This document shows, piece by piece, positions 2,663 to 63,934 of a stretch of DNA of 63,934 nt (its first letter is position 1; every line of letters starts with the position of its first letter). The notes below the pieces were generated by a model. It had not been told where the DNA came from. It saw only the letters and a program-made list of their open reading frames with translations, and made no database searches. Source of the stretch: a virus (Duplodnaviria; Caudoviricetes); IMG/VR virus record IMGVR_UViG_3300035156_000168, positions 1 through 63,934 of that record, one strand, 5' to 3'. The position numbers and the translations under genes were made by a program.

Positions 2663-2779
2663 CCACACAGACTGCACGTAGGGTACATAATGATTGGACG
2701 CACCAAGACAGAAAAAGGCCCGCTAGCGCTGGAACGCCCGGGCCGGCCCACCGACGAAAGACTTTGAGGAGATCAGCCA

Positions 2780-3130: not shown

Positions 3131-3136
3131 GTTCTT

Positions 3137-9190: not shown

Positions 9191-9445
9191 TTGGGGGTTG
9201 CTGTGGTTGGTGAGCCGTTGGATGTGGTGGCTGAAAGTGGTGATAGGGGTGCTGCTTTGGCTGCGTTGAGGGATCTGTTGGCGCGTGAGTTGGTGGCTTC
9301 TGATGGCCGTGGGACGGCTGCTTTGGCGCGTGAGTTTCGGGACACGCTGCGGGATTTGGCGGCTGTTGCGACACCTGAGGGGGATGCGGTTGACGAACTT
9401 GCTCAGGAGCGAGCTAAGAGGCGTTCAGCAGCCTCGGCTCAGTAG
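9191..9445 (+). CDS. terminase small subunit
   Basis: Short helical ORF ending DAVDELAQERAKRR, overlaps TerL start; start uncertain. Confidence 0.7.
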   Translation: MGVAVVGEPLDVVAESGDRGAALAALRDLLARELVASDGRGTAALAREFRDTLRDLAAVATPEGDAVDELAQERAKRRSAASAQ

Positions 9446-10877: not shown

Positions 10878-12391
10878 CCGCTGAACTGATGGCGGTCATG
10901 GCGGGCGACATCGATCGGCGTTGCCAGGGGCGGAACGGCGAGCCGGGTTACACGCTGCTCGGGCAATATCTGTCGGGGTCGCAGCCGTTGCGGTTCCTGC
11001 ACCCTGAGGTTGTGTCGCAGGTCGGGGACCGGTTGACGTCGCTGGTCATCAACTGGGCGCGGGTTGTGGTTGGTGCAGTCGAGGAACGTCTGGACGTTGA
11101 GGGGTTTCGGCTGCCGGGTGTTGACGGCACGGATGACCTGTTGTGGGAGCAGTGGCAGGGCAACAATTTGGACGAGTGGTCGCAGCTCGGGCATGTGGAT
11201 GCGATGACGAACGGACGCGCGTTTGGGTTGGTTTGGTCCGACCCTGACCAGCCGGACATGCCGCGTATCACTGTCGAGTCGGCGACGCAGATGACGGTGA
11301 TGTACCGTGCGGGTTCGCGTCGGATTGAGTCGGCGGCGAAGGTGTACGCCAACCCTGACCTGGGCCCGAACCGTGTGGGTGGTGGGCGGATCGGCTGGCT
11401 GTATCTGCCTGACCGTGCCGAGCAGTACGTGTCGACGGGCAGTTACGGCGCGTGGGAGTTGCAGGACGTCAAACCGAACACGCTCGGCGTGGTGCCTGTG
11501 GTGCCCTTGGTGAACCGCCCGAAGCTGACGGACCTGTCGGGTGAGTCCGAGCTGGTGGACGTGCTGCCGTTGGTGGATGCGGTCAACAAGCTGGGCACCG
11601 ACATGATGGTGTCGTCTGAGTTCCACGCGATGCCGCGCCGATACGCGACGGGCATTGAGATTCCGCGCGAGGTGTTGGCGAACGACCGGTTGCGGTCTGA
11701 GGTTGCGGCGAAGTGGGACGACGCCACGAAGGGTAAGACGTGGCTGGCTGGCCCGGGCGTTCAGTTCGGGCAGTTCCCTGAGGCGACGCTCGACAACTTC
11801 ATCAACGCCATCAAAATGTTGGAAGGCGCGATCGCCGCCATCGGCGGGCTGCCGCCGCACTATATGGGTTTGGCGTCGGACAACCCGGCGTCGGCTGACG
11901 CGATCCGTTCCGCTGAGGCCTCTTTGGTGAAGCGGGCGTTGCGGAAGCAGACAGCGTTCGGTGGGTCGTGGGAGGAAGTGCAGCGGCTCGGTGTGTGTGT
12001 CCGTTTGGGCATTCCGCGCGCTGACCTCGACCCGGCGTTTGAGCGGCTTGAGACGCAGTGGAAGGACCCGACGACACCGACGCCGGCGCAGAAAGCTGAC
12101 GCTGCCGTGAAGTTAGTGACCGGGGAACGTCCGATCATCGACGTCGACCAGGCCCGTGAGGATTTGGGTTACACCCCGGCGCAGATTACGGCGATGAATG
12201 CCCGCGCGGACCGGGCTCGTGCTGAGGCTGTGACAGCTGATGTGCGTGCCCGTGTCGACCAGGCGGACGAGTTGATGGCGTCGCAGGGTTTGTCGCAGGC
12301 GTCGGCGTTTGCCGCTGTCGGTTTGTTGGCTGCTGCGCAGCAGATTACGACGACGCCTTCCGTGGCGTCCGGCGGTCAACCCGCCGCATAG
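10874..12391 (+). CDS. portal protein (SPP1 gp6-like)
   Basis: NWARVVV...ERL, VPVVPLVNRP, G.SEL, NPASADAIR; follows TerL. Confidence 0.92.
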   Translation: MTAELMAVMAGDIDRRCQGRNGEPGYTLLGQYLSGSQPLRFLHPEVVSQVGDRLTSLVINWARVVVGAVEERLDVEGFRLPGVDGTDDLLWEQWQGNNLDEWSQLGHVDAMTNGRAFGLVWSDPDQPDMPRITVESATQMTVMYRAGSRRIESAAKVYANPDLGPNRVGGGRIGWLYLPDRAEQYVSTGSYGAWELQDVKPNTLGVVPVVPLVNRPKLTDLSGESELVDVLPLVDAVNKLGTDMMVSSEFHAMPRRYATGIEIPREVLANDRLRSEVAAKWDDATKGKTWLAGPGVQFGQFPEATLDNFINAIKMLEGAIAAIGGLPPHYMGLASDNPASADAIRSAEASLVKRALRKQTAFGGSWEEVQRLGVCVRLGIPRADLDPAFERLETQWKDPTTPTPAQKADAAVKLVTGERPIIDVDQAREDLGYTPAQITAMNARADRARAEAVTADVRARVDQADELMASQGLSQASAFAAVGLLAAAQQITTTPSVASGGQPAA

Positions 12392-40987: not shown

Positions 40988-42625
40988 ATGGCGAAAGACG
41001 TACCCGACGTTGCGAGTTGGAACCCGTACTGGGAGAACAGCGTCGCCAACATCAAAAAAGGAATGCAAGCACTCATCGACGTCGGCTCCGACGTGATCGG
41101 CATGCAGGAAATGTCCCACGACCCAACCTGGGACGCGATAGCGGCATGGACGCCAACAATCGGCTGGTGGACGACCCCGAAGTCGAACGCCATCCCCATC
41201 CACGTCAACACCAAAACGTACGAGATCGTCGACTGGAAGTCGGTGCTGTACGACGACAGCGACCGCACCGTCGAACCGGGTGCGGGCGGCAACACGACCC
41301 CGACGAAAAGCATCATGCGGGTGTCGGTCCGTCACCGCGAGCAGGGCACCGTGTCGCACCACTTCAACATGCACCTGATCGCCACGATTGAGAGCGGCGG
41401 GCAGGTTGGTGGGAACCCGTTGCGGCTGGCGTTCGCGCAAGGCCACCTCGACCTGTTCAAACAGTTGGCGGCGCCGTACCTCGCAACAGGTGAGCCGGTG
41501 ACGGTCTCCGCCGACTGGAATGTGTCGTCGTCGACTTCCGCAGGGAAGTGGCTCCGCGACCAAATGACCCCGCTCGGGTTCGTGTCGGCGCAGCACAAGC
41601 TGGGCCCGTTCAACACGCACGGCGTCCGCGAAATCGACGACGTGTTCTACGCCAACTGTGAGGCGACGAAGTTCCGCCGGCTCGACGAGTTCGGCTCCGA
41701 CCACAGCCCAATCGAGGTGGACCTGGGCCCAAAAGCAGAAGAGGAACCCGAATTGGCTACCTGTCAGAACGGCTACCCGGTCGCGTTCAGCCGCGAACAG
41801 ATTAAGCCCAGCCCCGCCACCGTCACCATCGCGGGTCTGCGGAAGTTCACCGTCCGCTCCGACCACGCCCCCGCGTGGCAGATCCTCGGCGACCATTTGC
41901 ACGAGTACGTGGAGGCCGTCAACGAGGGCTACAAGGACATAGACGACTGGTCGTACACCGTCCGTCCGGTGCGCGGTCAAACGTCCGGCTACAGCAACCA
42001 CTCCGGCGCTTGCGCGTGGGACTGGAACGCCACCCAGCACCCGCTCGCCACATCCCCAGCCGCCAACTTCACGACACGGCAGATCACCCGCATCCGTGAG
42101 CTGATGTCGAAGTTCGTCGGCAACGGTCAGCGCATCTTCCGTTGGGGCGGCGACTACTCGGGCCGCAAGGACGGCATGCACTTGGAGGTGGTGGCGTCGT
42201 CGGCGGACGTGGCCGCGTTCGTCCGCGACTTCAACGCCGGCAAAATCCGCCTGTCGTTCGTCGCACCACCACCAGAGCCGGTCGTCGTTAAGCCCGCCGC
42301 GGTCAAACCGAAGGTGTCGCTGAAAGCGGTACAGGCTGGGTTGCGGTCAGGGTCCGAACTCGTCGAAGGTCCCACCGGCAACGACGGCGCCGAGTATCAG
42401 CGGGCGTTGAACAAGTTCACCGGGTTCGAGTTGGTCACCGACGGCGTGCTCGGCCGCAACAGCCGCGTCGTCACCGCACAAGCGCAACTCAAGGTGGCAC
42501 GCGGAAACGGCGCGAACCTGACAACCGCTGACTGCTGGCCGAACTCCGGCTACAACACGGACCTCGACGGCATCGTCGGTGCGGAAACGTTCAAAGCGCT
42601 CGGCCTGGACAACACCGACATCTAA
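40988..42625 (+). CDS. endolysin: EEP domain, M15 peptidase, peptidoglycan-binding domain
   Basis: GMQE/ADWN/IDDVF/SDH; SNHSG..A.D, WGGDY...D.MH.E; DGVLG/DGIVG. Confidence 0.85.
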   Translation: MAKDVPDVASWNPYWENSVANIKKGMQALIDVGSDVIGMQEMSHDPTWDAIAAWTPTIGWWTTPKSNAIPIHVNTKTYEIVDWKSVLYDDSDRTVEPGAGGNTTPTKSIMRVSVRHREQGTVSHHFNMHLIATIESGGQVGGNPLRLAFAQGHLDLFKQLAAPYLATGEPVTVSADWNVSSSTSAGKWLRDQMTPLGFVSAQHKLGPFNTHGVREIDDVFYANCEATKFRRLDEFGSDHSPIEVDLGPKAEEEPELATCQNGYPVAFSREQIKPSPATVTIAGLRKFTVRSDHAPAWQILGDHLHEYVEAVNEGYKDIDDWSYTVRPVRGQTSGYSNHSGACAWDWNATQHPLATSPAANFTTRQITRIRELMSKFVGNGQRIFRWGGDYSGRKDGMHLEVVASSADVAAFVRDFNAGKIRLSFVAPPPEPVVVKPAAVKPKVSLKAVQAGLRSGSELVEGPTGNDGAEYQRALNKFTGFELVTDGVLGRNSRVVTAQAQLKVARGNGANLTTADCWPNSGYNTDLDGIVGAETFKALGLDNTDI

Positions 42626-42826: not shown

Positions 42827-43285
42827 ATGCCCATTGTGAACGCATCTGTGCTGAAAGCCGACGCCAGCAACCGCGCCCTACGCACCTTCCTGCAAGGGCT
42901 CGCCTACGTTGTGCTGTTCGCTGTCGGGCTCGTCCTGTACAACGCGTTCAGCACCGCAACCCGCTGGTCCGACTTCGACTGGTCCGCGCTGCTGTTCTCA
43001 GCGCTGCAGGCCGCGGTCATGGCCGGGTTTGCGTACCTCATGAGGTCTCGCCTTGACGCGTCGTCGGTGCCGACACCGCTGCCGCCCGAATACCCCGGCG
43101 AACCCAACGAAGAACCGCAGATCATCAACGTAGACGCGGATAAGTTAAGGGAAGGCACTTTGGGGGCCACCAACGTAAAGGAAGGGACGTTGGGCGGCGC
43201 GCAGATCATCTCGAACCGCACCGGCAAGGTCTACGACGACCACCCCGACCGAGGCATGCGAGACGACGGGACGCCGATCGTCTGA
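42827..43285 (+). CDS. holin
   Basis: RALRTFLQ, two TM helices; GAAAGG RBS. Confidence 0.75.
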   Translation: MPIVNASVLKADASNRALRTFLQGLAYVVLFAVGLVLYNAFSTATRWSDFDWSALLFSALQAAVMAGFAYLMRSRLDASSVPTPLPPEYPGEPNEEPQIINVDADKLREGTLGATNVKEGTLGGAQIISNRTGKVYDDHPDRGMRDDGTPIV

Positions 43286-43299
43286 CTGCGACATCCGAT

Positions 43300-43677
43300 T
43301 CAGGTGCCTACCAGTTGGTGAGCGCGTTGATGTGACACCCCGAGCAGAGCCCCGATGTCCCGCAAGGGAACATCCGCAGAGGCGAGCCCCTTCGCCAACT
43401 CGGCAGCTTCATGAGCAGCCTCGGCCTCGAGCTGAGCGGCGGCTTCCTTGTCGTGGCGGATGAGCGCCACCTTTTCCCCGACCGAGATCCCTCCCACGTC
43501 CCCGTAGCTGAGGGACACGTCCACGTCGCTAAGTTTCACGTCGAGAGTGACCGCGATGTACTCGCGGGCCATGAGTTCGATCTCGGACACGCGTCGAGCT
43601 TGAGTGACCCCGTCTAGTTCGGGGATGTGGATCATCCACCAGCGGCCTTCTCTGGTCACTGTTACGTCGTACCTCAT
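43300..43677 (-). CDS. hicB: HicB-like antitoxin
   Basis: YDVTVTREGRWW.I.IPEL...TQA plus C-terminal HTH (DIGALLGVSHQRAHQL). Confidence 0.8.
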   Translation of the reverse strand: MRYDVTVTREGRWWMIHIPELDGVTQARRVSEIELMAREYIAVTLDVKLSDVDVSLSYGDVGGISVGEKVALIRHDKEAAAQLEAEAAHEAAELAKGLASADVPLRDIGALLGVSHQRAHQLVGT

Positions 43678-43874
43678 TTGCCCCCCTGGGCGCTCTTGAT
43701 TGCAGCCATGATTTGACGGACTACCCCTGGCGAGATGGTGCGGTGGCCGTCGGGCACCGACACACTGACTGACCCTGCCTGCCAAACGGTGTGGCTTCCC
43801 ACGGTCCGCACCGGCAGGAAGCCTGCGTCCCGGAGTTGCTTCACCATTTTGCGGGTGGGCTGCTCGCTAACCAT
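43674..43874 (-). CDS. hicA: HicA toxin
   Basis: L..AGF...R..GSH, VP.H..I.PG. Confidence 0.88.
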   Translation of the reverse strand: MVSEQPTRKMVKQLRDAGFLPVRTVGSHTVWQAGSVSVSVPDGHRTISPGVVRQIMAAIKSAQGGK

Positions 43875-44388: not shown

Positions 44389-44633
44389 GTCGGCAGCCTA
44401 ACAAACTACTGAGCGGAAGGGGTGCCCTGTCGAGGGAGCGGCGTCGCACGCGAGCGAAGCGAGTGGAGCGACGCCGAGCCTACCGGCTTTGTCAACTCTG
44501 ACGCAACAAAAACTGGACATCCCGTGCAGTCTCTGTGGAGTTACGCGCCGCATCCGTTAATGTGTGCGTAGCAGTGTTTCCCCCACCAGAGAGGTCAACG
44601 CATGAACATTTTCGGAGTGGCGACGTGAGAGGC

Positions 44634-44867
44634 ATGTTGCACAGCCTGTTCGCTGGGCCGTTCAAAACGGCGGTGCTTATCGGCGCAGTGTTGATGCTCG
44701 TCGTCGGCATCGGCCAAGCCGCGACAGCCATGTATGTCGGCGGTCGCGCTATCGGCGGCGGTGTCGGTGTCACCGTTTACGACTTCATCCCTGGCATGGC
44801 TGACGGCTTCAACCAGGCGAAGGCTGACGCGGTGAAGATCCGCCAGCAGTACCAGGCGCAGAGCTAG
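44634..44867 (+). CDS. small membrane protein
   Basis: Hydrophobic, coupled to the FtsK-like gene. Confidence 0.55.
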   Translation: MLHSLFAGPFKTAVLIGAVLMLVVGIGQAATAMYVGGRAIGGGVGVTVYDFIPGMADGFNQAKADAVKIRQQYQAQS

Positions 44868-46720
44868 TGGCGAAGATGGCGGCGAAGCGGCGGCGTAAGG
44901 CGTCGTCATCTGTTGAGCAGTGGGTTGTTTCGCATGTGCTGACGAAGTGGTGGTTTTGGCTGTGGGCGGCGTTCACGTACGTCACTTACAGGTTCTTCGG
45001 TGACATGTGGTCGGTGTTGAAGGTGGAGGCGGCGATTGTCGGCGTCTCCACCTGTGTGTTTGTGTCGCTGTGGCGCCGGGAGCGTCTGCGGCTACTGGCG
45101 GCGAAGGGTTTGCCGAACCCTGGCTTGTTGGGGGTGGTGAAGGACGCCGGGAAGGTGGCCGTCGCCATCCCCAGAACCCGTGAGGGTTGGGTTAACGCGT
45201 GGGCGTCGCTGCCGGCGTTGAAGGGCCGCAAGATGCCGCCGTTGCGGAACATGACGATGACAGCGGACGGTGATTTGGAGACGTTGGTTCATGCGTCGAA
45301 GTACGGGGTGACGGTTGAGCTGATCCAGGCGAACGCCGCCGACATCGCGCAAATCTGCAACTCGCCTCGGCTGGTGGTGCGCAGGACGTCTATCGGCTGG
45401 GCGAAGCTCACGTTCCGGTTCACGGAGCCGTTGGAGCGGGTGCTGCCCATCGCCGAGCTGCCGCTGCCGAAGACGCGCGGGAACATCGTCATTGGCGTGA
45501 CCGAAGACGGCGACCCGATGGAACTGCCCGGCGATCAGTGCATCCTCGACGGCGGCGTTCAAGGGTCCGGGAAGTCGAACGACCTGTGGTGCTTGTTGGC
45601 GTCTCTGAACATGCAGGGCATCCCGACGCGGGCGCGGTTCATCGACTTGAAGGACGGCATGGAACTCAGCCGCCTGGGTGCGAACCCGCTCGGCGAATGG
45701 GTGGGGTTGGGGAACCTTTGCGTCGCCGGGTACACCACCGACGCCGACGAGGGTTTGCAGATCGTTCAGGACGCCCTCGACGACATGCGGGAGCGCGCGA
45801 AGCGGTTGGGTGAGGACAAGGTGCGGAAGTTCCGCGAGTACACCCAAGACGACCCGTTCTTGCTGTTGGTGATCGACGAGGCGCTCGACTACAACGACGA
45901 GTTCAAGAAGGGCACTTCCCGTCCTTTGGGCCAGTTCAACCGGAAGGTGCGGGCGGTGGGCGGGCTGACGATGGCGACGGTGCAGTACGCGCACGCGCAG
46001 GACATGGGTGTTGGTAGGAAGCCGTTCGGCACCCGCATCTGCCACCGGGCGGAGAAGGAAACCGGCGACACCATCCTTGGGGCGGGTGCTGCGTCTCGCG
46101 GTGCGGAGGTCGACAAAATCCCACAGTCGATGCCTGGCGTCGGGTTCTACGTGGACCCGGACAGGGGCGAGCAGACCCCGTTCCGGTCGGCGTATGTGAC
46201 GGACGCAGACGCGGACCGCATCGCCTCCGGTCTGCTGCCGGAGGGCATCGAGTTCGGGACGCCCGCCGAGGAAATCGCACCCGAGTGCGCGGTCTATTGG
46301 CTGCGGTCGTCGGACGGTGAGTCGCTGTACATCGGGAAGGCGCTCGACCCAGCCGCCCGTTGGGACCAGCACAAGTCGCCCAGCAGCAGCGACTACAAGC
46401 CGTGGATCGACGAAGTCGACTGGACGCAGACGAAGGTGTTCTGGAAGGACAACGAGGCGGCGGCGCTCAAGTACGAGAAGCATCTGACGGAGAAGTTCGG
46501 GTCGAAGTACAACGACCTGAACAACCGGAAGACGCCGTGGCGTGTTGACTGGCGGGCTGAGCACAAGGCGAAGAAAGCCGCGGAGGCTGCGGATGCTGTG
46601 CCGGAGCCGTCGAACGAGGAGTTGGCTGGGCGTCGCCCGTTGCAGCTGGTCGTGAACGACGACGTGGACGATGACGGTCTGATGCCTACCGGTACTGATT
46701 CGTACTACGGCAGCGAGTGA
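44867..46720 (+). CDS. FtsK/SpoIIIE (TraB-like) DNA translocase with C-terminal GIY-YIG domain
   Basis: Two N-terminal TM, Walker A GVQGSGKS, IDLKDG.E, Walker B LLLVIDE, PGVG; AVYWL...LYIGKA..P..RW.QH. Confidence 0.85.
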   Translation: MAKMAAKRRRKASSSVEQWVVSHVLTKWWFWLWAAFTYVTYRFFGDMWSVLKVEAAIVGVSTCVFVSLWRRERLRLLAAKGLPNPGLLGVVKDAGKVAVAIPRTREGWVNAWASLPALKGRKMPPLRNMTMTADGDLETLVHASKYGVTVELIQANAADIAQICNSPRLVVRRTSIGWAKLTFRFTEPLERVLPIAELPLPKTRGNIVIGVTEDGDPMELPGDQCILDGGVQGSGKSNDLWCLLASLNMQGIPTRARFIDLKDGMELSRLGANPLGEWVGLGNLCVAGYTTDADEGLQIVQDALDDMRERAKRLGEDKVRKFREYTQDDPFLLLVIDEALDYNDEFKKGTSRPLGQFNRKVRAVGGLTMATVQYAHAQDMGVGRKPFGTRICHRAEKETGDTILGAGAASRGAEVDKIPQSMPGVGFYVDPDRGEQTPFRSAYVTDADADRIASGLLPEGIEFGTPAEEIAPECAVYWLRSSDGESLYIGKALDPAARWDQHKSPSSSDYKPWIDEVDWTQTKVFWKDNEAAALKYEKHLTEKFGSKYNDLNNRKTPWRVDWRAEHKAKKAAEAADAVPEPSNEELAGRRPLQLVVNDDVDDDGLMPTGTDSYYGSE

Positions 46721-48699
46721 TGGACGAAGACGAGGTCGGTCACAGTCTGACCGCCGGTCACGTTGTGATGGCTGGCGTCCTGGCGTTGTTCCTTGCCGGA
46801 GGGCACGCATATCAGGCGTCGGACGACCCGCCGGAGGTGGCGTGCGCCAACACTGTCGTCACGCCGTCAGCGGCGGGTGTCGAGATCGCGGCGAGCATCG
46901 GTCGAGGGATCAACGCGTTGGCTCACGGTCGTCCGTCGGAGGAGACGGTGCGCGACTACACCCTCGGCGCGTGGGGCCAGGTTGGGCTGTGGGTCGGTTC
47001 GGGGATCGCTGCGGCTCGCGGTCAGGAGTTGCCGAAGTCGGCGCTGATTGAGCAGCGGAAAGCGGTCGCGCAGGCGGTCGCTTTGCAGGATGCGTGCACC
47101 CCGAAGGCGGTGTGTGAGGCGCCGTTGCCGACCGCGGCGGCGGCGATTAGCACGTCTCGGCTGAGTCTCACTGGCGCTCCGCAGGCAGCGGACGCAGCAC
47201 GCAAGGCAGGGTTCACTGGTGAGGATCTTGTGGTGGCTGTTGCTGTCGCCGCCGCCGAGTCGGGCTATCGCAATGTGCGGTCGAAGCCGAACAGCAACGG
47301 CTCCTACGACCACGGCTTTTGGCAGATCAACAGTGTCCATCGCGGACTGTTGGCGGGCGGCGACTGGCGCGACCCGTACGACAACGCGCAGATGGCGTAC
47401 CAGGTGTGGGAGGACGCCGGGTGGCGGGCGTGGACGACCTACAAGAACGGCTCCCACCGACGCCACATGGATGCGGCCCGCGCGGCCGGCCAGGGCGCAC
47501 AGCAGACCCCGGCGGTGCCCGATCAGCCGACCTGCGAAGCGGGGAACCTGCAGGGCGTGATTTCGTCGGTGGCTGAGTTGAACCCGTCCGGCGCCGGCAA
47601 CTGGCAGGGCATGGTCCACGAGGGCCGCTGGTGGTATGTGGCGCACGCCACCGCTGGCGACCGGGCGCAGATCATCCACCGACTCGACGCCGACGGCAAA
47701 GAGGTCGACCAGATGACACTGGCAGGGTTCGAGCACGCCACCAGCTTCGGGGTGCGGCGCGGGGTCGTCTACGCCACCGACGGCCAACGTCAGGTCGTGA
47801 CCGTCAAGTACCAACCAGGCGAGACGGTGCGGTCAGGTCAGCCGACCGGATGGGCAGGGCAGGTGTCGTTCGACCCCGACGGGTCCCGGGCAGTGCTCCG
47901 CAACGGCAACCGATACAAGGTTATGGACCTCGCGACAGGTAAGCCGGTTGGCCGGCAGATTGTCACCCCGACCGGGCCGAGGCAAGGGTTCTCGGTAAAG
48001 GGCGACACCGTCTATGTGCTGTCGGGGTCGACGAACGAGAAGGCGCGGATCGACGCCTACTCGGTGCAAACCGGGTTGCAGAGCGGCACCCGTGATGTGA
48101 CAGGGGTCGGCTACAAGCAAGGCGAAACAGGTCGGTTCCGCGAGCCGGAGGGCATGTTCGGCAACCTGGTCGGCGTCAAGGTGCACACCGGCGACAAGCG
48201 GCGGCTGCGGGTGTTCCGCATCGACGCAGCTCGCACTGGCACACCTGCGGCGTTGACGTCGACGCAGATCGGTGGTGTGCGAACCGTGCAGTCGAAGGGC
48301 CGCACCTGGCAGATCCCGATCCCGAAAGGCCCGCGCGGCGTGGCTATCAACTTCGTGCTCGACCAGATCGAGCAAGGCGACCAGTACATCTACGGCAGCA
48401 AAGGCCCGGACACGTGGGACTGCTCGTCGCTGATCGCCGCCGGCTACCGCAAAGCTGGCATCAGCGTGTACCCACAGTCGGGGGTGATGAACCGCACCCT
48501 CAAACACGTGCCGCTGTCAGAGGCGCAACCGGGCGACATCTTCTGGCACCCCGGTCACGTCCAGCTGAACTTGGGCCGGATCAACGGCAAGAGAGTTGTC
48601 CTGGAAGCGGCAAACCCGCGCGACGACCTGCGCATCGACGACTCCGGCTGGGCCAAAATTGACGCAGTGCTTCGACCCACAGACGGAATCCCGACATGA
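46717..48699 (+). CDS. membrane-anchored cell-wall hydrolase: lytic transglycosylase, beta-propeller-like, NlpC/P60
   Basis: AVAAAESG, DHGFWQIN, AWTTY; Y.YG..GPD..DCSSL, PGDI.....HV. Confidence 0.85.
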   Translation: MMDEDEVGHSLTAGHVVMAGVLALFLAGGHAYQASDDPPEVACANTVVTPSAAGVEIAASIGRGINALAHGRPSEETVRDYTLGAWGQVGLWVGSGIAAARGQELPKSALIEQRKAVAQAVALQDACTPKAVCEAPLPTAAAAISTSRLSLTGAPQAADAARKAGFTGEDLVVAVAVAAAESGYRNVRSKPNSNGSYDHGFWQINSVHRGLLAGGDWRDPYDNAQMAYQVWEDAGWRAWTTYKNGSHRRHMDAARAAGQGAQQTPAVPDQPTCEAGNLQGVISSVAELNPSGAGNWQGMVHEGRWWYVAHATAGDRAQIIHRLDADGKEVDQMTLAGFEHATSFGVRRGVVYATDGQRQVVTVKYQPGETVRSGQPTGWAGQVSFDPDGSRAVLRNGNRYKVMDLATGKPVGRQIVTPTGPRQGFSVKGDTVYVLSGSTNEKARIDAYSVQTGLQSGTRDVTGVGYKQGETGRFREPEGMFGNLVGVKVHTGDKRRLRVFRIDAARTGTPAALTSTQIGGVRTVQSKGRTWQIPIPKGPRGVAINFVLDQIEQGDQYIYGSKGPDTWDCSSLIAAGYRKAGISVYPQSGVMNRTLKHVPLSEAQPGDIFWHPGHVQLNLGRINGKRVVLEAANPRDDLRIDDSGWAKIDAVLRPTDGIPT

Positions 48700-48721
48700 A
48701 CCGGCGAGAGGGCAACTGACA

Positions 48722-49213
48722 ATGTTGATCGACTACTTCGGCTTCAACGAGGTGATGAAGTCGCTGGCCGTGTTCGGGCTCATTCTGTCCGGGTTCCTAA
48801 CCGTCATCGTGCTCATTTTCGTCCGGCCGCCGCTCACCACGCAGACGAACGCCAGAACAGGCGAAACGCGGCACGGCATCTTCCGCTGGTTCGCGGTGTT
48901 CACCGCCATCTTCTCAGGCGTACCCCTGCTCATGATCGTCGTCCGGGCTGCGGCGACACCAATCGCATGGCTGGCGGCGCACTGGGTGTGGCTGGGGTTC
49001 GCCGCCATCGCCGCTGCGGCCGCGTGGGGTGCTTTAACGTGGTGGATCAACCGCCCCCGCATCGTCAAGGATGAACCTGTGCAAGTGCTGCCGCCACCAA
49101 CCAACCACAACCCGGGACCGTCGCTGCCACAGCCGCCACGCCCGCACGCGGCGCCGTCGCAGTACTACTACGGGCAATGGTCACAGTCCCCCGACACCAC
49201 CCCGCGCGGGTGA
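48722..49213 (+). CDS. membrane protein with Pro-rich tail
   Basis: Three TM helices. Confidence 0.6.
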   Translation: MLIDYFGFNEVMKSLAVFGLILSGFLTVIVLIFVRPPLTTQTNARTGETRHGIFRWFAVFTAIFSGVPLLMIVVRAAATPIAWLAAHWVWLGFAAIAAAAAWGALTWWINRPRIVKDEPVQVLPPPTNHNPGPSLPQPPRPHAAPSQYYYGQWSQSPDTTPRG

Positions 49214-49452: not shown

Positions 49453-49847
49453 CACTCACCGAGTTCCTGCTGGCGCGGATCGCGGAGGATAAGGCCAGTG
49501 CGTCAACGCACGCTTACTCTACAGTCGTCGGTGATGTTGCGCTCGGGGACGGTCGGCGCGCCCCTTTAAACAGTTGGGTGAGATTTAACCCCGCTCGCGT
49601 GCTAGCGGAGTGCGAAGCCAAGCGGCGGATTGTGACCGAGGTGCACTACGACCGCAACGCCGAGAGTGTGGCCGAGGCGAAGGCTGACCACGAGCGACAC
49701 GGGTGGCCCGTCTTGGTGGAGTCGGAGTGCGCCTCTTGCAGTTGCTACTCGGACTGCGTCGTCTCAATTGAGGACTGCCCCACACTGCGGCTACTCGCAC
49801 TGCCGTACGTCGACCACCCATCATTCCAGGATGAATGGCGGGCTTAG
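49449..49847 (+). CDS. DUF6221-like protein
   Basis: EFLLARIAED, PARVLAECEAKRRI, LRLLALPY.DHP. Confidence 0.75.
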   Translation: MTLTEFLLARIAEDKASASTHAYSTVVGDVALGDGRRAPLNSWVRFNPARVLAECEAKRRIVTEVHYDRNAESVAEAKADHERHGWPVLVESECASCSCYSDCVVSIEDCPTLRLLALPYVDHPSFQDEWRA

Positions 49848-49875
49848 TCGGATGACACGCTGTAGGATAGGTGAC

Positions 49876-50391
49876 GTGACGGTTTGGCTTCCTATACCTG
49901 GGTACGAGCGCACTTACGAAGTGTCCGATATGGGCGAGGTTCGGAGCAGGCCGCGGCCGAGAACCCGAGGCGGAACCCTTAAGACATGGATCGGACGCCG
50001 CGGCTACCCGGTTGTATCGCTCGTGCAAAATGGCCGACAAGCAACTCGCGTGGTTCATGGACTTGTGGCCTTAACGTTCCTCGGGCCAAGACCCGAGAGC
50101 CAGGAAGTGCGTCACCTGAACGGTGACCCCACGGACGCGCGCGCCTCAAATCTCGCTTACGGCACCCGAGGCGAGAATGTTCGAGACAAACGTCACCACG
50201 GCAGTGACCACAACGTGAACAAGACTCACTGCCCACAAGGGCATCCTTATGACGAATCCAATACCTACGTTCTGCCTTCGCGGCCGGGCGCTCGTTACTG
50301 CCGCGAGTGCGCCAGGGTGAGAGCTCTTGCTCGTTACCACGCAAAGCGCACCCCCGACTTTGACGAGGCGTGGCGTCCCGATGCCGGTTGA
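49876..50391 (+). CDS. NUMOD4-HNH homing endonuclease
   Basis: W.PIPGYE..YEVSD.G.VRS, VRHLNGD......NL.YGT..EN, KTHCPQGH. Confidence 0.9.
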   Translation: MTVWLPIPGYERTYEVSDMGEVRSRPRPRTRGGTLKTWIGRRGYPVVSLVQNGRQATRVVHGLVALTFLGPRPESQEVRHLNGDPTDARASNLAYGTRGENVRDKRHHGSDHNVNKTHCPQGHPYDESNTYVLPSRPGARYCRECARVRALARYHAKRTPDFDEAWRPDAG

Positions 50392-52017: not shown

Positions 52018-52086
52018 CGTTGTCGGGTTCTGACATGCACCCTGAACGGGCCTAGTTCGACGACCCGGCGAACACGTCCTTCTGTC

Positions 52087-52327
52087 GGGCACATACGAGG
52101 GCACATGGGCGGGCGAGCTTACGCTCAGATGGCTCAGTGAAGGCACATGTTCAGACAGGATCAGCACACTCAGCGGCAGGATTTTGGAGGGTCTGATTGT
52201 GGTTTTGACTAGGGATTTTAGGCTGCGCCCCCGAGTGGATTCGAACCACTGACCGACAGATTAGAAGACTGTTGCAATGTGCTCCCCACTAGGGGAAATG
52301 CTGGCGTCGGGCACATCTAAGGCACAT
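52087..52327. other. attP: tRNA-Arg(TCT) 3' half core (52224-52267, minus strand) with arm-type repeats
   Basis: Reverse complement CTTCTAATCTGTCGGTCAGTGGTTCGAATCCACTCGGGGGCGCA; RGGCACAT at 52087, 52099, 52141, 52309, 52320. Confidence 0.88.
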
Positions 52328-52408
52328 CGTCGCCAAAACTTGCAATGTTTCGCCTAGTCAGCGTCCACTTCGACTGGCTACAACGTCCACAATACATGTA
52401 AGGAAGCC

Positions 52409-53071
52409 ATGCAAACCAAGAGACGGACAGTACGCGACGACCAGCACGGGACCATAACGGGTTACACCTACGGCTGCCGATGTGACACCTGCACAGAAGC
52501 CAACCGCGTCAAACACGAGTCGATCAGACAAGCGATGCTGGCCGACCCCGAGGACCGTCGTCATGCCACCGCGACTGGCTACAAGTACGGGTGCCGGTGC
52601 GAGGCGTGCTCACGCGCGAACAGCCTGGCAGACGCTGCCCATGACGCCGCGTTTCGTCGCGACCTTACCGACCAGCGTCATGGCACGGCGGCTGGCTACG
52701 CGTACGGCTGCGCATGCGACGGTTGCCTGCGCGCAGGCAAGGCGTACCGCGCCGGAATCGTTCAGCTCTTGGCTCAGGACCCCGACGACCCTCGGCATGG
52801 CACGTCAACGGGCTATACGTACGGATGCAGATGCGAGCCTTGCCGGGAAGCGAAGATGGATTCCAACGCCACATCAGCGCGGTTGGAGTACCACTCGGAA
52901 CGCGCCACGCACGGCGACCTCCGCCTATTCGCACATGGGCTAGGACTCAGCGTGCCCCGCAGCGGGGCACGTCGTGAAGCGCTCATTAAGCGGTACAACC
53001 GAGAGCACCCCGATCGTCCGTACACCGACGAATCGGATCATGAGTACAAAGAACGCCAATGGCAGCGTTGA
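52409..53071 (+). CDS. protein with four HGTxxGYxYGCxCxxC repeats
   Basis: Four ~37-aa repeats; AAGGA RBS. Confidence 0.75.
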   Translation: MQTKRRTVRDDQHGTITGYTYGCRCDTCTEANRVKHESIRQAMLADPEDRRHATATGYKYGCRCEACSRANSLADAAHDAAFRRDLTDQRHGTAAGYAYGCACDGCLRAGKAYRAGIVQLLAQDPDDPRHGTSTGYTYGCRCEPCREAKMDSNATSARLEYHSERATHGDLRLFAHGLGLSVPRSGARREALIKRYNREHPDRPYTDESDHEYKERQWQR

Positions 53072-53074
53072 CGC

Positions 53075-54151
53075 CTAGCGTTCGTACCCGCCCATCCGCT
53101 TAGCCACGTCGTCAACACCCTGCTCCCACGCGTGGCCGTACAAGTCGACCGTCATGGTGGCGCTGGCGTGCCCGAGCATCCGTTGCACCACTTTGACGTC
53201 GGCACCGGATGCGATGGCGAGGCTGGCGGCGGTGTGGCGTAGGTCGTGTGGCCGCAGCCCGTCCAGCCCGACTTGTGCGGTGGCGTCCTGGAAGCGTTTG
53301 TAGAAGCGGCTGTGACGTCTCAGCCCACCCCGAGCGGCCGGCAGCAGTGGCTCATCCGGCCCGCGCCCGCCGGCCAAGTTGATAAGTTCAATTAGCAACG
53401 CGGGTGGTACACCAACTTCGCGCGCCTTCCCCGTCTTCGTGTCCCCGACAGTGAGCACTCCCCCGCGTTCCCCCACCGACCTCGACACCGTCAACCTGGC
53501 CCGGGCCGCATCCAAGTCGCGGACCCGCAACCCCGCCAACTCACCCCAACGCAACCCGGTGAACGCCAACGTCCTCACCGCGATCCCGTCCGGGCCGCAC
53601 GCCTCCGCCAACTCATGAATCTGCTGCTGCGTCAACGGCCTCCCCTGCCTACGGGCCGGCATCTTCACCGACACCCCCGCAGTCGGATCAGCAATCACCA
53701 AACCGTCGCGGACAGCCAAAGCGAACACACCGGACAGAATTTGTAGAGCCTGACGAGCCACAGAAGGGGACGTGCGCGCAGCCTTCTCCGCAACCCACCC
53801 AGCAACCTCCGAATGCCGCACATCTGACAGCTGCCGGTCCTCCCACTCCGGCGCCACATGAATCCGCCACTTCGACTCATAGTTCCCGACATGCCCCGCC
53901 GACAGCCCCCGCTTCGTGCGTATCCACGCCGCGTACTGCTTCCCGACCGTCGCCTGCGACGCCAACTGCTGCGGTGTGACCCGCAGCTCCGCCAAATGCC
54001 GCTCCGCCTCATCCTTAGTGGTGAAGTTCCGCTTCCGCTGGTTCTCGTCGGAGTCCCGCCACCGCGCCTGCCAACGCTGCCCGCGACCGTTCAACGCCGT
54101 CGGCACCTTACGGCCACCGACCTTACGGAACCACAAATCGTAGACAGCCAT
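53075..54151 (-). CDS. int: tyrosine integrase
   Basis: TGLRWGE, HDLRH, LGHAS..MT.D.Y. Confidence 0.95.
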   Translation of the reverse strand: MAVYDLWFRKVGGRKVPTALNGRGQRWQARWRDSDENQRKRNFTTKDEAERHLAELRVTPQQLASQATVGKQYAAWIRTKRGLSAGHVGNYESKWRIHVAPEWEDRQLSDVRHSEVAGWVAEKAARTSPSVARQALQILSGVFALAVRDGLVIADPTAGVSVKMPARRQGRPLTQQQIHELAEACGPDGIAVRTLAFTGLRWGELAGLRVRDLDAARARLTVSRSVGERGGVLTVGDTKTGKAREVGVPPALLIELINLAGGRGPDEPLLPAARGGLRRHSRFYKRFQDATAQVGLDGLRPHDLRHTAASLAIASGADVKVVQRMLGHASATMTVDLYGHAWEQGVDDVAKRMGGYER

Positions 54152-56621: not shown

Positions 56622-57236
56622 ATGCCCGATGCACAGGTAAGTATCAGCAAGATCGACACCGAGCACATGCTGGTGCCGATTGTGGGGACGTCGCCGCTGA
56701 TCGTTCACAAGTTCAGCGAGAAGGCGAAGCGTCAGATGCTCGACGCTCAGCAGGGACGCAAGTCGCCGAAGGTGGCGCGTGACCCCGAGGCTGACTATCA
56801 GGCCGCGTTCTACCGCACCAAAGAGGGCTACGGCTTCCCGGCTGTGGCGTTTAAGGCGTGCACGATCGGCGCCGCACGGTTCTACGGCAAAGACGTGAAG
56901 ATGACCGAGCTGCGGCAGTTCCTGTTCTTCAAGGGCATTGTGTCGGAGAAGGACCCGCAGTCACTTGTCGAGATCGTCGGCGAGCCGCATATGCGCGAAG
57001 ACGTCGTGCGGCTCGGGATGAGCGGCACAGACCTCCGTTACCGGCCCGAGTTCACCGAGTGGTCGGCGACGTTGGAGGTCATATACATCCGGTCGAGCCT
57101 CACGTCTGAGTCGGTGCTGTCGCTGATCGATGCGGGCGGCATGGGTGTCGGCGTTGGCGAATGGCGCCCTGAAAAACGCGGTGACTACGGCACATTCCAA
57201 ATCGACCCGACGCGTGACGTCGTGGTGACGAAGTGA
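56622..57236 (+). CDS. RAMP/Cas7-like protein (204 aa)
   Basis: IVGTSPLIVH, FPAVAFKA, RYRPEF.EW, Gly-rich loop GGMGVGVGEWRPEKRGDYGTF; AGGAG RBS. Confidence 0.7.
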   Translation: MPDAQVSISKIDTEHMLVPIVGTSPLIVHKFSEKAKRQMLDAQQGRKSPKVARDPEADYQAAFYRTKEGYGFPAVAFKACTIGAARFYGKDVKMTELRQFLFFKGIVSEKDPQSLVEIVGEPHMREDVVRLGMSGTDLRYRPEFTEWSATLEVIYIRSSLTSESVLSLIDAGGMGVGVGEWRPEKRGDYGTFQIDPTRDVVVTK

Positions 57237-57240
57237 GCAC

Positions 57241-57716
57241 GGCAGGCGAGGCAAGGCAAGGCGGGTTGAGGCTTGGTGGGGCACGGCTTGGCATGGCAGG
57301 TCTGGCACGGCTAGGCGTGGCAAGTTCTGGCGAGGTCAGGCGCGGCAAGGCAGGCATGGCGAGGTTGGGTAAGGCTAGGCGCGGCCGGGCATGGCACGGT
57401 ACGGCTCGGCTCGGCAGGCACGGTTTGGTTTGGTGCGGTCGGGTCAGGCGCGGCTTGTCTGGGCTAGGCACGGCTGGGCAGGTTGGGCACGGCGTGGCAC
57501 GTCACGGTTCGGCCAGGCTTGGCGAGGCGCGGCAGGCAGGGCTACGTCTGGCAGGGTGCGGCGAGGTCGGGCACGGTTGGGCAGGCTTGGCTTGGCACGG
57601 CGCGGTTTGGTCGGGCGGGGTTTGGCAGGGCATGGCCCGGCAGGCGAGGCGTGGTGAATCGCGGTTGGGCATGGCGACGCGCGGCCAGGCTTGGCGAGGC
57701 GCGGCAGGTCTGGCAT
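57241..57716 (+). repeat. GGYNN pentamer array, 8 units delimited by GGCA (candidate guide-RNA array)
   Basis: Parsed by hand without gaps: GGCA at 57241, 57295, 57349, 57413, 57477, 57531, 57580, 57639, 57703. Confidence 0.92.
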
Positions 57717-58134
57717 GAACCTCCGCGACGCATTGCAGTCCGTCTACGACCAGCGTGGGCTTCTCACGCCTGCGTTGGTCGTAGATGAGGCCCGACCCGA
57801 TGACCACCCCCTGCATAACCGGTTCGAGTGGGACGACTCCATCGCTGGCGAGGCGTACCGCCACCAGCAAGCCCACCGGCTGATTACGTCGGTGCGGGTC
57901 AACATCGGCCACGACAAGCACGGCCCCAAGGACGTCCGGGCATTCGTAGCTGTGCCGACGTCGCTGCCGCAACCGAACTACATGCCGATCGCCGACGCGT
58001 TCGCCGACGACATGACCCAGCGCATCGTGCTCGCCGAGTTCGAGCGTGCGCTCAAGCAACTGCACCGACGCTACGGACACCTCAAGGAGTACGCGCAGAT
58101 GTTGAGAACGCATTTGACAGAGGACGCGGCATGA
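57715..58134 (+). CDS. accessory protein downstream of the array
   Basis: LTP..VVDEAR..DHPLH..FEWDD..A...YR..QA..LI; ATG lies in the last pentamer. Confidence 0.75.
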   Translation: MNLRDALQSVYDQRGLLTPALVVDEARPDDHPLHNRFEWDDSIAGEAYRHQQAHRLITSVRVNIGHDKHGPKDVRAFVAVPTSLPQPNYMPIADAFADDMTQRIVLAEFERALKQLHRRYGHLKEYAQMLRTHLTEDAA

Positions 58135-61900: not shown

Positions 61901-62236
61901 ATGACCAAACCCCCTGACTTGTTCGCCCGGGCGGCCGCGTCCGACGACAGCGCCACCCGCCAGTTAGGCGCCGAAATCGAAAAGTCGACCGCCGACCTGA
62001 AACAACGCCTGCGAAACGAAGCGGAAACCGAACTGGCGGCGTTGGAGAAGCGCCGCGCCGAACTGCGCGCCGTCATCCACCGCCGCACCGAACAGAAGGC
62101 CACCAAGGAAGCCGACGACAGCCGACCCGCAGCCATTCGCGCCTGGGCGATCGAGCAGGGCATGGGCGTCAAAAAGCGTGGGCGGATCGCCGCTGAAATC
62201 GTCGAACTGTACGACGCATGGCACGGACAGCTATGA
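61901..62236 (+). CDS. Lsr2-like DNA-binding protein
   Basis: IRAWA...G..V..RGRI...IV..Y C-terminal domain. Confidence 0.8.
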   Translation: MTKPPDLFARAAASDDSATRQLGAEIEKSTADLKQRLRNEAETELAALEKRRAELRAVIHRRTEQKATKEADDSRPAAIRAWAIEQGMGVKKRGRIAAEIVELYDAWHGQL

Positions 62237-62421
62237 CCGTCACCTACGCCCCGCCCGCAGCGTGGCGCACCATCCGCTACGACTACCGAATCCGGCTACC
62301 CCAACAGCACAGTTGGATACGCGCCACCGACCGGCAAGTCGTCGAAGCCGACAAAATCAACCGACGCTACGGCGACCGGATCGTCGGCGTCAGGTACAGG
62401 ACACGGCAGGTGCCGCTGTGA
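62233..62421 (+). CDS. hypothetical
   Basis: Coupled both sides. Confidence 0.45.
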   Translation: MTVTYAPPAAWRTIRYDYRIRLPQQHSWIRATDRQVVEADKINRRYGDRIVGVRYRTRQVPL

Positions 62422-63934
62422 CCGGCTCAGCTCAAATCATCCGCGGCAACGCCCTCGACCTGCCGCTGGCGGACGCGTCCGTCGATCTCATCTGCACGAG
62501 TCCGCCTTATTTCGGTTTGCGCTCGTACACCGACGCAGGGGAGCACTACGCCGGCCAGATCGGTGCGGAAGCAACACCCACCGAGTTCGTCGACGCGCTC
62601 ATCCAGGCGACCCGCGAAATGGTGCGCTGCTTGAAACCGTCCGGGTCCATCTGGATCAACCTCGGCGACTCGTACGCAGGCGCCGCTCCCGGACCGCAAG
62701 GCAAGGCAGGCCAGCGCGCCGACCGGGCCAGCGCTAACGAACCGTCTCGAGCGGCGGTCGCGCGCGGCGGCGACCATGTGCGAGCGAAAAGTCTCCGAGG
62801 GGTGCCGTGGCGGTACGCGCTCCGCTGCATCGACGACCTCGGGCTCATCCTCCGCGCCGAAGTCATCTGGGCGAAACCCAACGGGCTACCAGAATCGGTG
62901 ACCGACCGGGTGCGGCGCAGCCACGAGCAGTGGTTTCACTTCACTCGGGAGCCGCGCTACTTCTCGGCGGTAGACGAGATACGAGAGCCCCATGCACCAT
63001 CGTCGATGGCTCGGTACGCCAGCGGATTCGGACAGACAAAGCACAGCGCAGAACTAGACAAGCGGTACAAGGCTGACACGCTTGAGGCCAACCCGCTCGG
63101 CAAGCTCCCCGGCTCGGTGTGGACGGTGCCGACGCAGCCGTTGCAGGTGCCGCCCGAACTGGGCGTCGACCACTTCGCATGCGTTGACACTGACACGGAG
63201 ATGCTAACCAGTCGCGGCTGGTTGCGCTGGGACGAAGTCAAGGTCGGCGATCTAGCCGCCAGTTACGACGTGACCACCGGCCGATCGCGCTGGACCCACG
63301 TCCAAGCGGTCAACACCTACGACTACGACGGCGACTTGGTGTCCGTCGAATCGCGCGACCTGTCCATGCGTCTCACACCCAATCACCGCACCGTCGTCCA
63401 GCGCACTCGGGGACGGAGCAAGCAGCGCGGTCCGGTCGAGATTGTGGAAGCGCGGCAGCTCGACCGATACCACTCCATCCCCCGCTCCGCCCCGTGGACG
63501 CACACCACCGACGACAGCGTCGGCACCGGATGGGCGAGCATCCTCGGATGGGTCGCGGCTGAGGGTTGGTATCAAGGCCGCTGCGTGTACCTGTCGCAGT
63601 CTGCAACAGCCAACCCCGACAAGGTGAAGCAGATCGACGCGCTACTACCTGACGCGACGTGGCGGCGGGAGCGGCAACGCGAGTGGCGCGGCACACCGTG
63701 GCTCGACGTGCAATGGCGCCTGTCAGACACTGACGCGATCGCGGTCCAGAAGGCGATGCCGGACAAGCTGCTGCCTGCGTCGCTCATCACCGCCACCACG
63801 TCCGAGCGGTGGGCTGTGCTCAACGCCTTCATCGCTGGCGACGGTCACGTGCGCCTAGACGATGAGCGCATCTCGATCTTCCAGAAGTCGCGGCACAACT
63901 TGGACGTGTTGCAAGCCATCGCGGTCACGTTGGG
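62418..63934 (+). CDS. DNA methyltransferase allele B with intein, runs off the window (not in ORF track)
   Basis: SVDLICTSPPY catalytic motif, LKPSGSIWINLGDSY; frame open to the end. Confidence 0.9.
   Translation, partial: MTGSAQIIRGNALDLPLADASVDLICTSPPYFGLRSYTDAGEHYAGQIGAEATPTEFVDALIQATREMVRCLKPSGSIWINLGDSYAGAAPGPQGKAGQRADRASANEPSRAAVARGGDHVRAKSLRGVPWRYALRCIDDLGLILRAEVIWAKPNGLPESVTDRVRRSHEQWFHFTREPRYFSAVDEIREPHAPSSMARYASGFGQTKHSAELDKRYKADTLEANPLGKLPGSVWTVPTQPLQVPPELGVDHFACVDTDTEMLTSRGWLRWDEVKVGDLAASYDVTTGRSRWTHVQAVNTYDYDGDLVSVESRDLSMRLTPNHRTVVQRTRGRSKQRGPVEIVEARQLDRYHSIPRSAPWTHTTDDSVGTGWASILGWVAAEGWYQGRCVYLSQSATANPDKVKQIDALLPDATWRRERQREWRGTPWLDVQWRLSDTDAIAVQKAMPDKLLPASLITATTSERWAVLNAFIAGDGHVRLDDERISIFQKSRHNLDVLQAIAVTL
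63180..63934 (+). mobile_element. intein with LAGLIDADG endonuclease, truncated by window end
   Basis: CVDTDTEMLTSRGW (block A), LTPNHR (block B), LGWVAAEG and LNAFIAGDG. Confidence 0.9.

Follow-up and report, generated by a model that had tools for sequence, protein, structure and literature searches.

The window analysed here (the whole stretch of DNA, 63,934 bases; IMG/VR record IMGVR_UViG_3300035156_000168, classed in that resource as linear and 88% complete) reads as the genome of a temperate siphovirus-like tailed phage, and between its lysis cassette and its integrase it carries an operon of four genes, the second of which encodes a membrane-anchored ATPase. On sequence evidence, the core of the finding is this one gene: a phage-lineage offshoot of the actinobacterial TraSA/TraB translocases that is fused to a phage-type GIY-YIG endonuclease. 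TraB-like genes are already known from actinomycete plasmids and from the integrative and conjugative elements of actinomycetes (AICEs; layout given in the available part of PMC2440964). What appears to be new is a diversified sister lineage of these TraB/TraSA pumps in phage genomes, mostly nuclease-carrying (137/153 proteins). In the portions of the literature accessible to a full-text search, supplements being outside its scope, no description of a phage TraSA-type motor fused to a GIY-YIG domain was found. The original prediction for this DNA had taken the four genes for a conjugation-like module that might let the phage spread from cell to cell without virions, as a hybrid of phage and AICE. 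The pump-nuclease is probably a phage accessory for DNA handling at the membrane, and not proof of virus-free spread.

A membrane-anchored motor fused to a nuclease

The operon comprises the following features, given in window coordinates:

44389..44633, plus strand: presumed promoter region, intergenic, 245 nucleotides (nt), divergent from small minus-strand genes
44634-44867, plus strand: small protein with one transmembrane (TM) segment, 77 amino acids (aa); a longer GTG start at 44535 is possible
44867-46720, plus strand: ATPase, 617 aa, predicted membrane-anchored TraSA/TraB-like FtsK-type translocase with a C-terminal GIY-YIG nuclease
46717-48699, plus strand: peptidoglycan hydrolase, 660 aa
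48722-49213, plus strand: protein with three TM segments (3-TM protein), 163 aa, proline-rich tail; a TTG start at 48596 is possible

Stop and start codons overlap at the first two junctions (TAGTG at 44865-44869 and GTGA at 46717-46720), the 3-TM gene begins 22 nt past the hydrolase stop, and the G+C content at third codon positions of the four frames (0.72-0.86) is like that of the other genes in the window. From this layout, the ATPase gene would belong to a transcription unit of its own, shared with the hydrolase and the two membrane proteins. A sigma-70 consensus scan returned no site in 44389..44633, a blank of little weight as the scan did not include actinobacterial promoter types; in the same scan no sigma-70-like promoter or terminator stood out around the operon. 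Hydropathy analysis scored TM segments at residues 12-30 of the small protein, 50-68 of the ATPase and 11-29 of the hydrolase, and the 3-TM protein has two scored segments plus a third hydrophobic stretch judged by eye. Checks of open reading frames (ORFs), junctions, hydropathy and Pfam domains agreed with the original prediction on the four ORFs, their coupling, the membrane segments and the hydrolase domains. Its account of the domain content was borne out for the ATPase and for the transglycosylase and NlpC/P60 domains; the GIY-YIG nuclease, and a propeller in the hydrolase, had been overlooked.

Within the ATPase, the motor occupies approximately residues 115-460 and the nuclease residues 470-550. 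The Pfam model FtsK_SpoIIIE scored 18.3 bits, below its 24-bit cut-off, and the assignment to the FtsK-type motors is made because phrog_1358 matches the protein (2.7e-13), the Walker A (G232, K233, S234) and Walker B (D334, E335) residues are invariant in an alignment of 60 relatives, and the modeled fold matches known motors. In the AlphaFold2 model (mean predicted local distance difference test score 89.5), N-terminal helices at residues 12-41 and 44-76 are read as a membrane hairpin, and the best Foldseek matches were TcpA (6.7e-15) and the FtsK motor (7.9e-15). A sequence-profile search also identified TcpA, the coupling protein of pCW3, as the best solved relative (1.8e-5). TcpA of Clostridium perfringens pCW3 (6o1w) and the FtsK motor (2iuu, 6t8o) have the same motor fold as the window protein, but identity to TcpA is only 18%, and the window protein ends in a nuclease and has no gamma/winged helix-turn-helix domain. 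TcpA works with a VirB4-like ATPase and a relaxase.

The C terminus of the ATPase matches the GIY-YIG domain PF01541 (1.4e-10, residues 475-549). In the same 60 sequences, Y474, G487 and R495 of the GIY-YIG signature are invariant, and Y485, H499, E534 and N546 are at least 90% conserved; catalytic roles belong to the Tyr, Tyr-x-Gly, Arg, His, Glu and Asn positions of this signature. Since these positions are invariant or nearly so, the fusion appears to be old and under selection. The nearest solved sequence to the nuclease is the N-terminal domain of UvrC, which matches weakly (0.06). Taken together, sequence and structural model make secure the identification of the protein as a membrane-anchored FtsK-type motor for double-stranded DNA (dsDNA), of conjugative ancestry and with an intact C-terminal nuclease. 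Its only match in PADLOC-DB 2.0 was a weak one to mad8 (5.6e-6, 24 bits), and a PADLOC scan of seven other proteins gave no matches.

A sister clade of the AICE transfer proteins

A word-index search with the ATPase retrieved four proteins, the query's own included, and an exhaustive profile search of 1.84 billion representatives (a protein library clustered at 50% identity) retrieved 2,126 proteins at E <= 1e-3 and 138 at E <= 1e-30. A GIY-YIG domain is present in 137 of 153 retrieved family proteins. Single-protein pattern scans detected no relative on viral contigs (queries: the ATPase, P0013 and P0018) or on genome contigs (query: the ATPase). Viral contigs likewise gave no match to a degenerate DNA pattern for the KPW..EVDW motif and no relative with alignment A5. 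When one genome per prokaryotic species was scanned by pattern, 397 relatives were confirmed within the first 600 pattern matches, and the best 80 of the 397, all but one with actinobacterial titles, were analysed as loci. The ORFs at these 80 loci (186-592 aa) match the family profile in its membrane and motor parts only, and none of them carries the nuclease (0/80). RepSA, the replication initiator of pSAM2, is the next or next-but-one gene in 13 of 14 Pfam-annotated genome loci; Xis-like and integrase genes follow in most of the 14, and GntR and NUDIX genes lie upstream in several. This order (GntR/NUDIX-Tra-RepSA-xis-int) is the AICE layout published in the available part of PMC2440964, and by gene content the unfused sister group is the AICE transfer protein (Tra).

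An own RepSA model was built from 12 of these RepSA proteins. It detected RepSA at 78/80 genome loci, the remaining two being without downstream sequence; at 67/80 metagenome loci, the remaining 13 being without sequence; and at 1/25 viral loci obtained by scanning IMG/VR with alignment A1. Seven records of a plasmid collection matched, including the characterised AICE pMR2 (int-xis-rep-DUF2637-Tra). The metagenome scan gave unfused, mostly RepSA-linked genes only, with 0/83 domain rows extending into the nuclease region, and the C-terminal 176 residues, used as a single-sequence query, had no match at E <= 1e-6 in a sample of 401 Actinomycetota genomes, a result that falls short of showing absence. 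The pSAM2-type TraSA/Tra proteins of AICEs (e.g., the Micromonospora pMR2 FtsK/SpoIIIE protein, NC_006910) share the N-terminal membrane anchor and FtsK-type motor with the window ATPase, at 26-34% tblastn identity over ~300 residues and family-profile E-values of 1e-55 to 1e-78. They differ in being 450-590 aa long, in having no GIY-YIG domain and in lying beside RepSA, xis and int, whereas the window protein is nuclease-fused and encoded in a phage without RepSA.

When the family profile was run against five actinobacterial genomes, the AICE Tra genes scored 191-246 bits and ranked above FtsK and EccC frames in all five. Frames of 800-953 aa, read as chromosomal FtsK, scored 70-80 bits; frames of 1,195-1,597 aa, read as EccC-like, 25-58 bits; and frames of 575-829 aa that matched in the GIY-YIG part only, read as UvrC, 25-36 bits. 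A 1,320-aa frame scored 74.7 bits and groups with the EccC-like rows in trees. Phylogenies were calculated from 246 motor columns and rooted on chromosomal FtsK, with FastTree (run 1, 241 sequences; run 2, 275 sequences, with viral-contig proteins added) and with IQ-TREE (a 120-sequence subsample, LG+G4 and the SH-like approximate likelihood ratio test, SH-aLRT). In all three trees, the window protein falls in a clade that is sister to the RepSA-linked AICE Tra proteins. This fusion clade contains 164 sequences in FastTree run 2 (support 0.91). Among its metagenome proteins 135 are fused and 15 unfused or truncated, among its viral-contig proteins 8 are fused and 6 unfused, and it includes 0/77 AICE sequences. 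All 77 AICE sequences fall in the sister clade together with 14 viral-contig proteins, and the joint node has a support of 0.97. IQ-TREE gave the same topology (SH-aLRT 91.3, 94.3 and 93.1; joint node 93.1). The window protein belongs to an 11-member subclade with a support of 1.00. The fusion clade is phage-associated, having 14 members on IMG/VR viral contigs and no RepSA linkage. A phylogeny against FtsK, which had been proposed as the check on a transfer function, therefore placed the ATPase with neither chromosomal FtsK nor EccC. The description of the protein as a conjugative TraB-like translocase holds in so far as its kinship with Tra is concerned, but the protein is a member of a sister clade and is not nested among the AICE Tra proteins.

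The origin of the nuclease was examined in 50,697 cultured-phage records. The window ATPase itself had no match in this collection, and a megablast of the module against the phage collection also gave none. Two other fusion-clade proteins matched 199 and 188 records, none of which covers 80% of either query, and the listed rows match the nuclease part only, at <=47% identity. The matched genes, from phages of Mycobacterium, Gordonia and Arthrobacter, are free-standing and bear GIY-YIG or homing endonuclease annotations. Since the matches are confined to the nuclease part, the motor appears to be absent from that cultured-phage collection and the nuclease to be of a phage type. The mycobacteriophage endonucleases are small stand-alone proteins, whereas the window domain forms the C terminus of a membrane motor.

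When IMG/VR was scanned with alignments A1 and A4, 34 loci were obtained, eight of which carry the fused gene. The settings of these eight are as follows:

L203, L204, L206: fused gene directly before the genes for the terminase large subunit (TerL) and portal
L205: fused gene before TerL and portal, with two small ORFs intervening
L208: fused gene ~2 kb upstream of TerL and transcribed away from repressor-like genes
L207: fused gene lying between genes for a tail fibre and an endolysin-like protein, closely preceded by a 50-aa TM gene
L209: fused gene between an excisionase-like gene and a capsid gene
L178: fused gene among HNH, NUDIX, WhiB and zinc-binding early-type genes, with tail genes adjoining

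The fused gene occupies at least five different genomic positions. A split form is found in the 35-kb viral contig L201, where a fusion-clade motor (829-2301) is followed by a separate 159-aa ORF (2748-3227) with a match (5.1e-9) to the nuclease portion of the family profile. In the 71-kb IMG/VR contig L196, a DUF2637 (SpdB-like, 1.7e-17) gene at 2738-3622 overlaps the start of a fusion-clade motor at 3619-5091; this tra-spd-like pair is without RepSA. Unfused AICE-type Tra-like ATPases lie right after a Toprim/AAA_25 primase-helicase gene in L179 (6985-10825), L180 and L182, and L179 also encodes a Mu-like portal and a ClpP-like protease. Given the unfused AICE-type motors in these three phage contigs, the motor would seem to have been acquired by phages on more than one occasion.

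The partners of the ATPase gene do not travel with it. At 10 fusion-clade viral loci, relatives of the window hydrolase, small TM protein or 3-TM protein were found in 0/10 (tblastn, E <= 0.01); clustering of neighbours at the 25 A1-scan loci produced no cluster that joins the window's three other proteins; and the 80 genome loci have no hydrolase relatives. PHROGs scans of nine of the 10 loci (not L210) detected a peptidoglycan hydrolase in L207 alone. The four-gene module therefore appears to be peculiar to this phage and its near kin. Looked for in other phages, as had been proposed, the fused gene recurs, and its hydrolase and membrane-protein partners do not.

Possible roles of the pump-nuclease

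We tentatively favour, as possible though short of probable, a reading in which the fused gene is a mobile accessory phage gene that intercepts and cleaves incoming foreign dsDNA. The protein would form a ring on the cytoplasmic side of the membrane, thread dsDNA using ATP, and cut it, acting as a "pump-and-cut" enzyme. As a moron-like gene of actinophages, it would cleave dsDNA entering through the envelope, whether from a superinfecting phage or from a conjugating AICE or plasmid, and its role would be exclusion or competition and not export of the phage's own genome. The hydrolase and the two orphan membrane proteins would have a positional link to the pump only, serving local wall remodelling or as an auxiliary lysis set. 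Phages use GIY-YIG-type nucleases against each other's genomes. Interception is favoured because the gene resembles a mobile accessory in its varied positions and lack of a fixed partner, because its nuclease is of this type used between phages, because it lies in a moron region adjoining a toxin-antitoxin pair (HicAB), and because HerA/FtsK ATPases captured from mobile elements and linked to nucleases have been proposed as interceptors of invading DNA (in the part of PMC10853773 available). In the DndH variants of HerA/FtsK-nuclease defence, a mobile-element FtsK-type ATPase is joined to a nuclease, as in the window protein; the DndH nuclease has a restriction-endonuclease fold, unlike GIY-YIG, no sequence relationship is established between the two, and the window has no Dnd genes.

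Several observations weigh against this interception reading. Apart from the weak mad8 match, PADLOC has no model for the protein. An exclusion role leaves a translationally coupled wall hydrolase without a job and does not explain how the phage's own DNA is spared. L207, an unrelated phage, also flanks the fused gene with a small TM gene and a peptidoglycan hydrolase gene, which hints at a real link with wall opening. A motor for export would equally be sister to AICE Tra. The description of the clade as phage-associated draws on a small sample, the context having been seen for only eight fused genes on IMG/VR contigs besides that of the window.

Among the alternatives, the one that survives best, although we consider it unlikely, places the protein in the phage's own infection cycle, where it would pull in the remainder of a partly injected genome, break down the DNA of the host, or carry phage DNA through a septum as it closes, which would supply the two daughter cells alike. 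This would fit the occurrence of the gene in phage contigs among early or packaging genes, the conservation of membrane anchor and motor across the clade, the unfused Tra-like ATPases directly after primase-helicase genes in L179, L180 and L182, and the FtsK-like genes of unassigned role reported in Streptomyces phages (bioRxiv 10.1101/2024.02.16.580700, the part available). The variable position and absence of a fixed partner suit an accessory gene better than a core step, however, and the window gene is far from the packaging and replication genes; host-DNA degradation, moreover, needs no membrane anchor.

Slightly less credible is the model of the original prediction, in which the four genes form a minimal conjugation-like apparatus and the genome reaches a neighbouring cell or hyphal compartment without virions. 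The motor-nuclease would linearise or nick replicated DNA and pump it, the hydrolase would open the wall or septal cross-wall, and the small proteins would be Spd-like. The placement of the motor as sister to AICE Tra, and not to FtsK or EccC, agrees with this model, as does the coupling protein TcpA as best solved sequence relative. The genes are coupled, L207 repeats the order of small TM gene, pump and hydrolase, and in L196 the DUF2637 gene overlaps the start of the fusion-clade ATPase. Tra adjoins the RepSA nickase at 78/80 loci, and a DNA-cutting partner may be a general need that is met here by the fused nuclease. A precedent for this model is the Streptomyces plasmid-phage pZL12, as cited in the available part of PMC3583192, according to which pZL12 replicates as a plasmid, whereas the window phage has an integrase. 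A 740-aa FtsK-like frame of Streptomyces, searched by tblastn against phages, matched neither pZL12 nor any actinophage.

The hydrolase also lends the transfer model some weight. It is predicted to be exported or anchored, with an N-terminal hydrophobic helix, an SLT_3 lytic transglycosylase domain (4.9e-15, residues 159-241), a five-bladed propeller-like domain (Phage_RBD_prop, 3.1e-7, 421-480) and an NlpC/P60 endopeptidase domain (NLPC_P60, 3.2e-8, 554-620). This two-enzyme, membrane-anchored build is that of Gram-positive conjugation hydrolases. Its sequence matches in the PDB are the Tn916-like hydrolases 9ubf (1.9e-7) and 4hpe (1.4e-6), followed by EtgA (0.0046), and the best solved relatives of its NlpC/P60 domain are the hydrolases of Tn916-like conjugative transposons. 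The Tn916 Orf14-like proteins CTn1-Orf17 and CTn7-Orf16 combine glycosidase-type and NlpC/P60 domains behind a hydrophobic N terminus, as in the window hydrolase, and CwlT of ICEBs1 is a two-domain wall hydrolase of the same group. The similarity extends over ~60 residues only, however, and the window protein adds a propeller of the type found in phage receptor-binding proteins and, unlike the Tn916-like elements, has no type IV secretion genes nearby. One of six database relatives of the hydrolase is full length (P0005, 70% identity, 98% coverage), and its domain types occur also in lysins and tail proteins.

The other components expected of an AICE or a type IV secretion system were not found in the window. 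Six-frame searches with PF12846 (AAA_10, VirB4-like) and PF03432 (relaxase) were blank in the window and matched control genomes, in accord with the earlier remark that neither VirB4 nor a relaxase is visible. A six-frame search found neither RepSA nor DUF2637 in the window, although controls of these two models gave no signal; the own RepSA model, positive on AICE loci, likewise found nothing. Pfam scans of 55 window ORFs detected no NUDIX and no GntR protein. The idea of a phage-AICE hybrid is not sustained, the window being without the AICE backbone of RepSA, DUF2637/Spd, NUDIX and GntR. No array of 7- or 8-mers resembling clt was found in or beside the module; repeat arrays occur elsewhere (57237-57705 and 52086-52330), with no tie to the ATPase. 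TraB/Spd transfer is described as using peptidoglycan-binding proteins in the available part of Thoma et al. 2015 (PMC4447253), and the words hydrolase and transglycosylase are absent from that text. Further points against the transfer model are the lack of partner relatives at the other viral loci, the single peptidoglycan hydrolase (L207) among the nine loci scanned, the phage free-standing type of the nuclease, and the four related phages that place the gene before terminase, where a transfer apparatus has no obvious use. Virion-free spread is therefore not favoured: there is no AICE backbone, no clt-like array was found, the clade is separate and nuclease-fused, and no partners recur.

A variant of the transfer model, which we regard as improbable, is a "membrane terminase". 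Here the GIY-YIG domain would cut replicated phage DNA, the motor would pump the linear duplex out, and the hydrolase would open the wall, so that the phage could also reach adjacent cells or hyphal compartments by a virion-free route. If true, every TraSA-type pump would need a DNA-cutting partner, AICEs using the adjacent RepSA nickase and phages a fused GIY-YIG domain, and this would bear on how circular dsDNA is readied for TraB-type transfer.

The operon may also be a composite, an option to which we give comparably little credence, with a second lysis-type set (small TM protein, hydrolase and holin-like 3-TM protein) into which the pump-nuclease gene was inserted. Phage genes often overlap at their stops and starts even when they are unrelated. 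The N-terminal helix of the hydrolase is weakly hydrophobic and rich in Gly and Ala and could be a signal-anchor-release domain; the propeller and NlpC/P60 parts match the phage tail or virion families phrog_2810, phrog_287 and phrog_25111; and the fused gene of L207 has a 50-aa TM protein on one side and an endolysin on the other. A full lysis cassette is already present 2 kb upstream, however, and neither small membrane protein matches a holin family in Pfam, PHROG and Atlas comparisons. Comparisons of the 77-aa protein with Pfam, PHROG, PADLOC and NCBIfam were blank. The 3-TM protein is an ORFan with a single relative, 98% identical, on a 1,695-nt contig, and it had no match at >=0.8 against the Atlas. 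A composite operon is compatible with the interception reading and does not compete with it.

That the module is an integrated AICE or the remnant of one is most improbable and was rejected: the motor is homologous to AICE Tra, but RepSA is absent from the window by Pfam and by the own model (positive at 145/160 genome and metagenome loci), neither an excisionase nor a second integrase adjoins the module, the region resembles the remainder of the window in G+C content, and the protein falls in the phage clade and not in the AICE clade.

If the protein excludes incoming DNA, it would represent a novel type of barrier that a phage raises to rival phages and conjugative elements; if it serves DNA export, a new way of virus spread. 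Either way, it would offer a handle on the ring motors that deal with DNA at the Gram-positive envelope.

The phage genome around the operon

Two DNA runs, both from biocrust metagenomes, are listed as containing the window sequence; one of them has 0.97 of the sampled words and may be its source sample, and no RNA run is listed. The window encodes scaffold, capsid and tail proteins, and its landmarks outside the operon are as follows:

9285-10877: terminase large subunit (TerL)
10751-12391: portal
19242-24431: tape measure, with internal matches to endolysin and metallo-endopeptidase families at residues 906-1433
40988-42625: lysin of the lysis cassette
42827-43285: 2-TM protein of the lysis cassette
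43300-43874, minus strand: HicB-like antitoxin and HicA toxin (phrog_8245, 3.3e-33; PF07927, 1e-7)
53075-54151, minus strand: integrase, part of the phage immunity region

The HicA/HicB genes and two small opposite-strand genes separate the lysis cassette from the four-gene module, as had been noted from the sequence. The tape measure (1,729 aa) has endolysin and metallo-endopeptidase matches, so the virion would already carry its own wall-degrading activity. Other genes encode repressor-like and Cro-like helix-turn-helix proteins, RecT, Lsr2, WhiB and a large DNA methyltransferase. Directly downstream of the module, at 49666-50391, is a free-standing HNH endonuclease with a NUMOD4 motif (phrog_1492, 1e-59).

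Across the window ends (62178-63934 plus 1-1471), a single frame continues for 1,075 codons without a stop, and DNA methyltransferase families match each of its halves; the genome may thus be circular or circularly permuted and have been cut within the methyltransferase gene. Bases 1-218 are 95% identical to 62771-62988, possibly as an effect of assembly or paralogy. Upstream of the integrase end, five copies of GGCACAT lie within 250 nt of non-coding sequence (52086-52330) and are candidate arm-type or operator sites near attP, the phage attachment site. The 220-aa ORF at 52409-53071 contains three repeats spaced 117 nt apart that are 71-77% identical over 66 nt; it has no Pfam match, and the repeats appear to encode a Cys-rich motif, possibly of a zinc-binding repeat protein. 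The ~470 nt at 57237-57705 form a degenerate array of short period, GGCAC and GGCTA being among its units (periods of 5, 10, 15 and 25 in Tandem Repeats Finder, TRF). The array falls inside a nominal ORF (57233-57718) for an "ARLG"-rich repeat protein and may be non-coding, as an iteron or origin-like region within the early operon.

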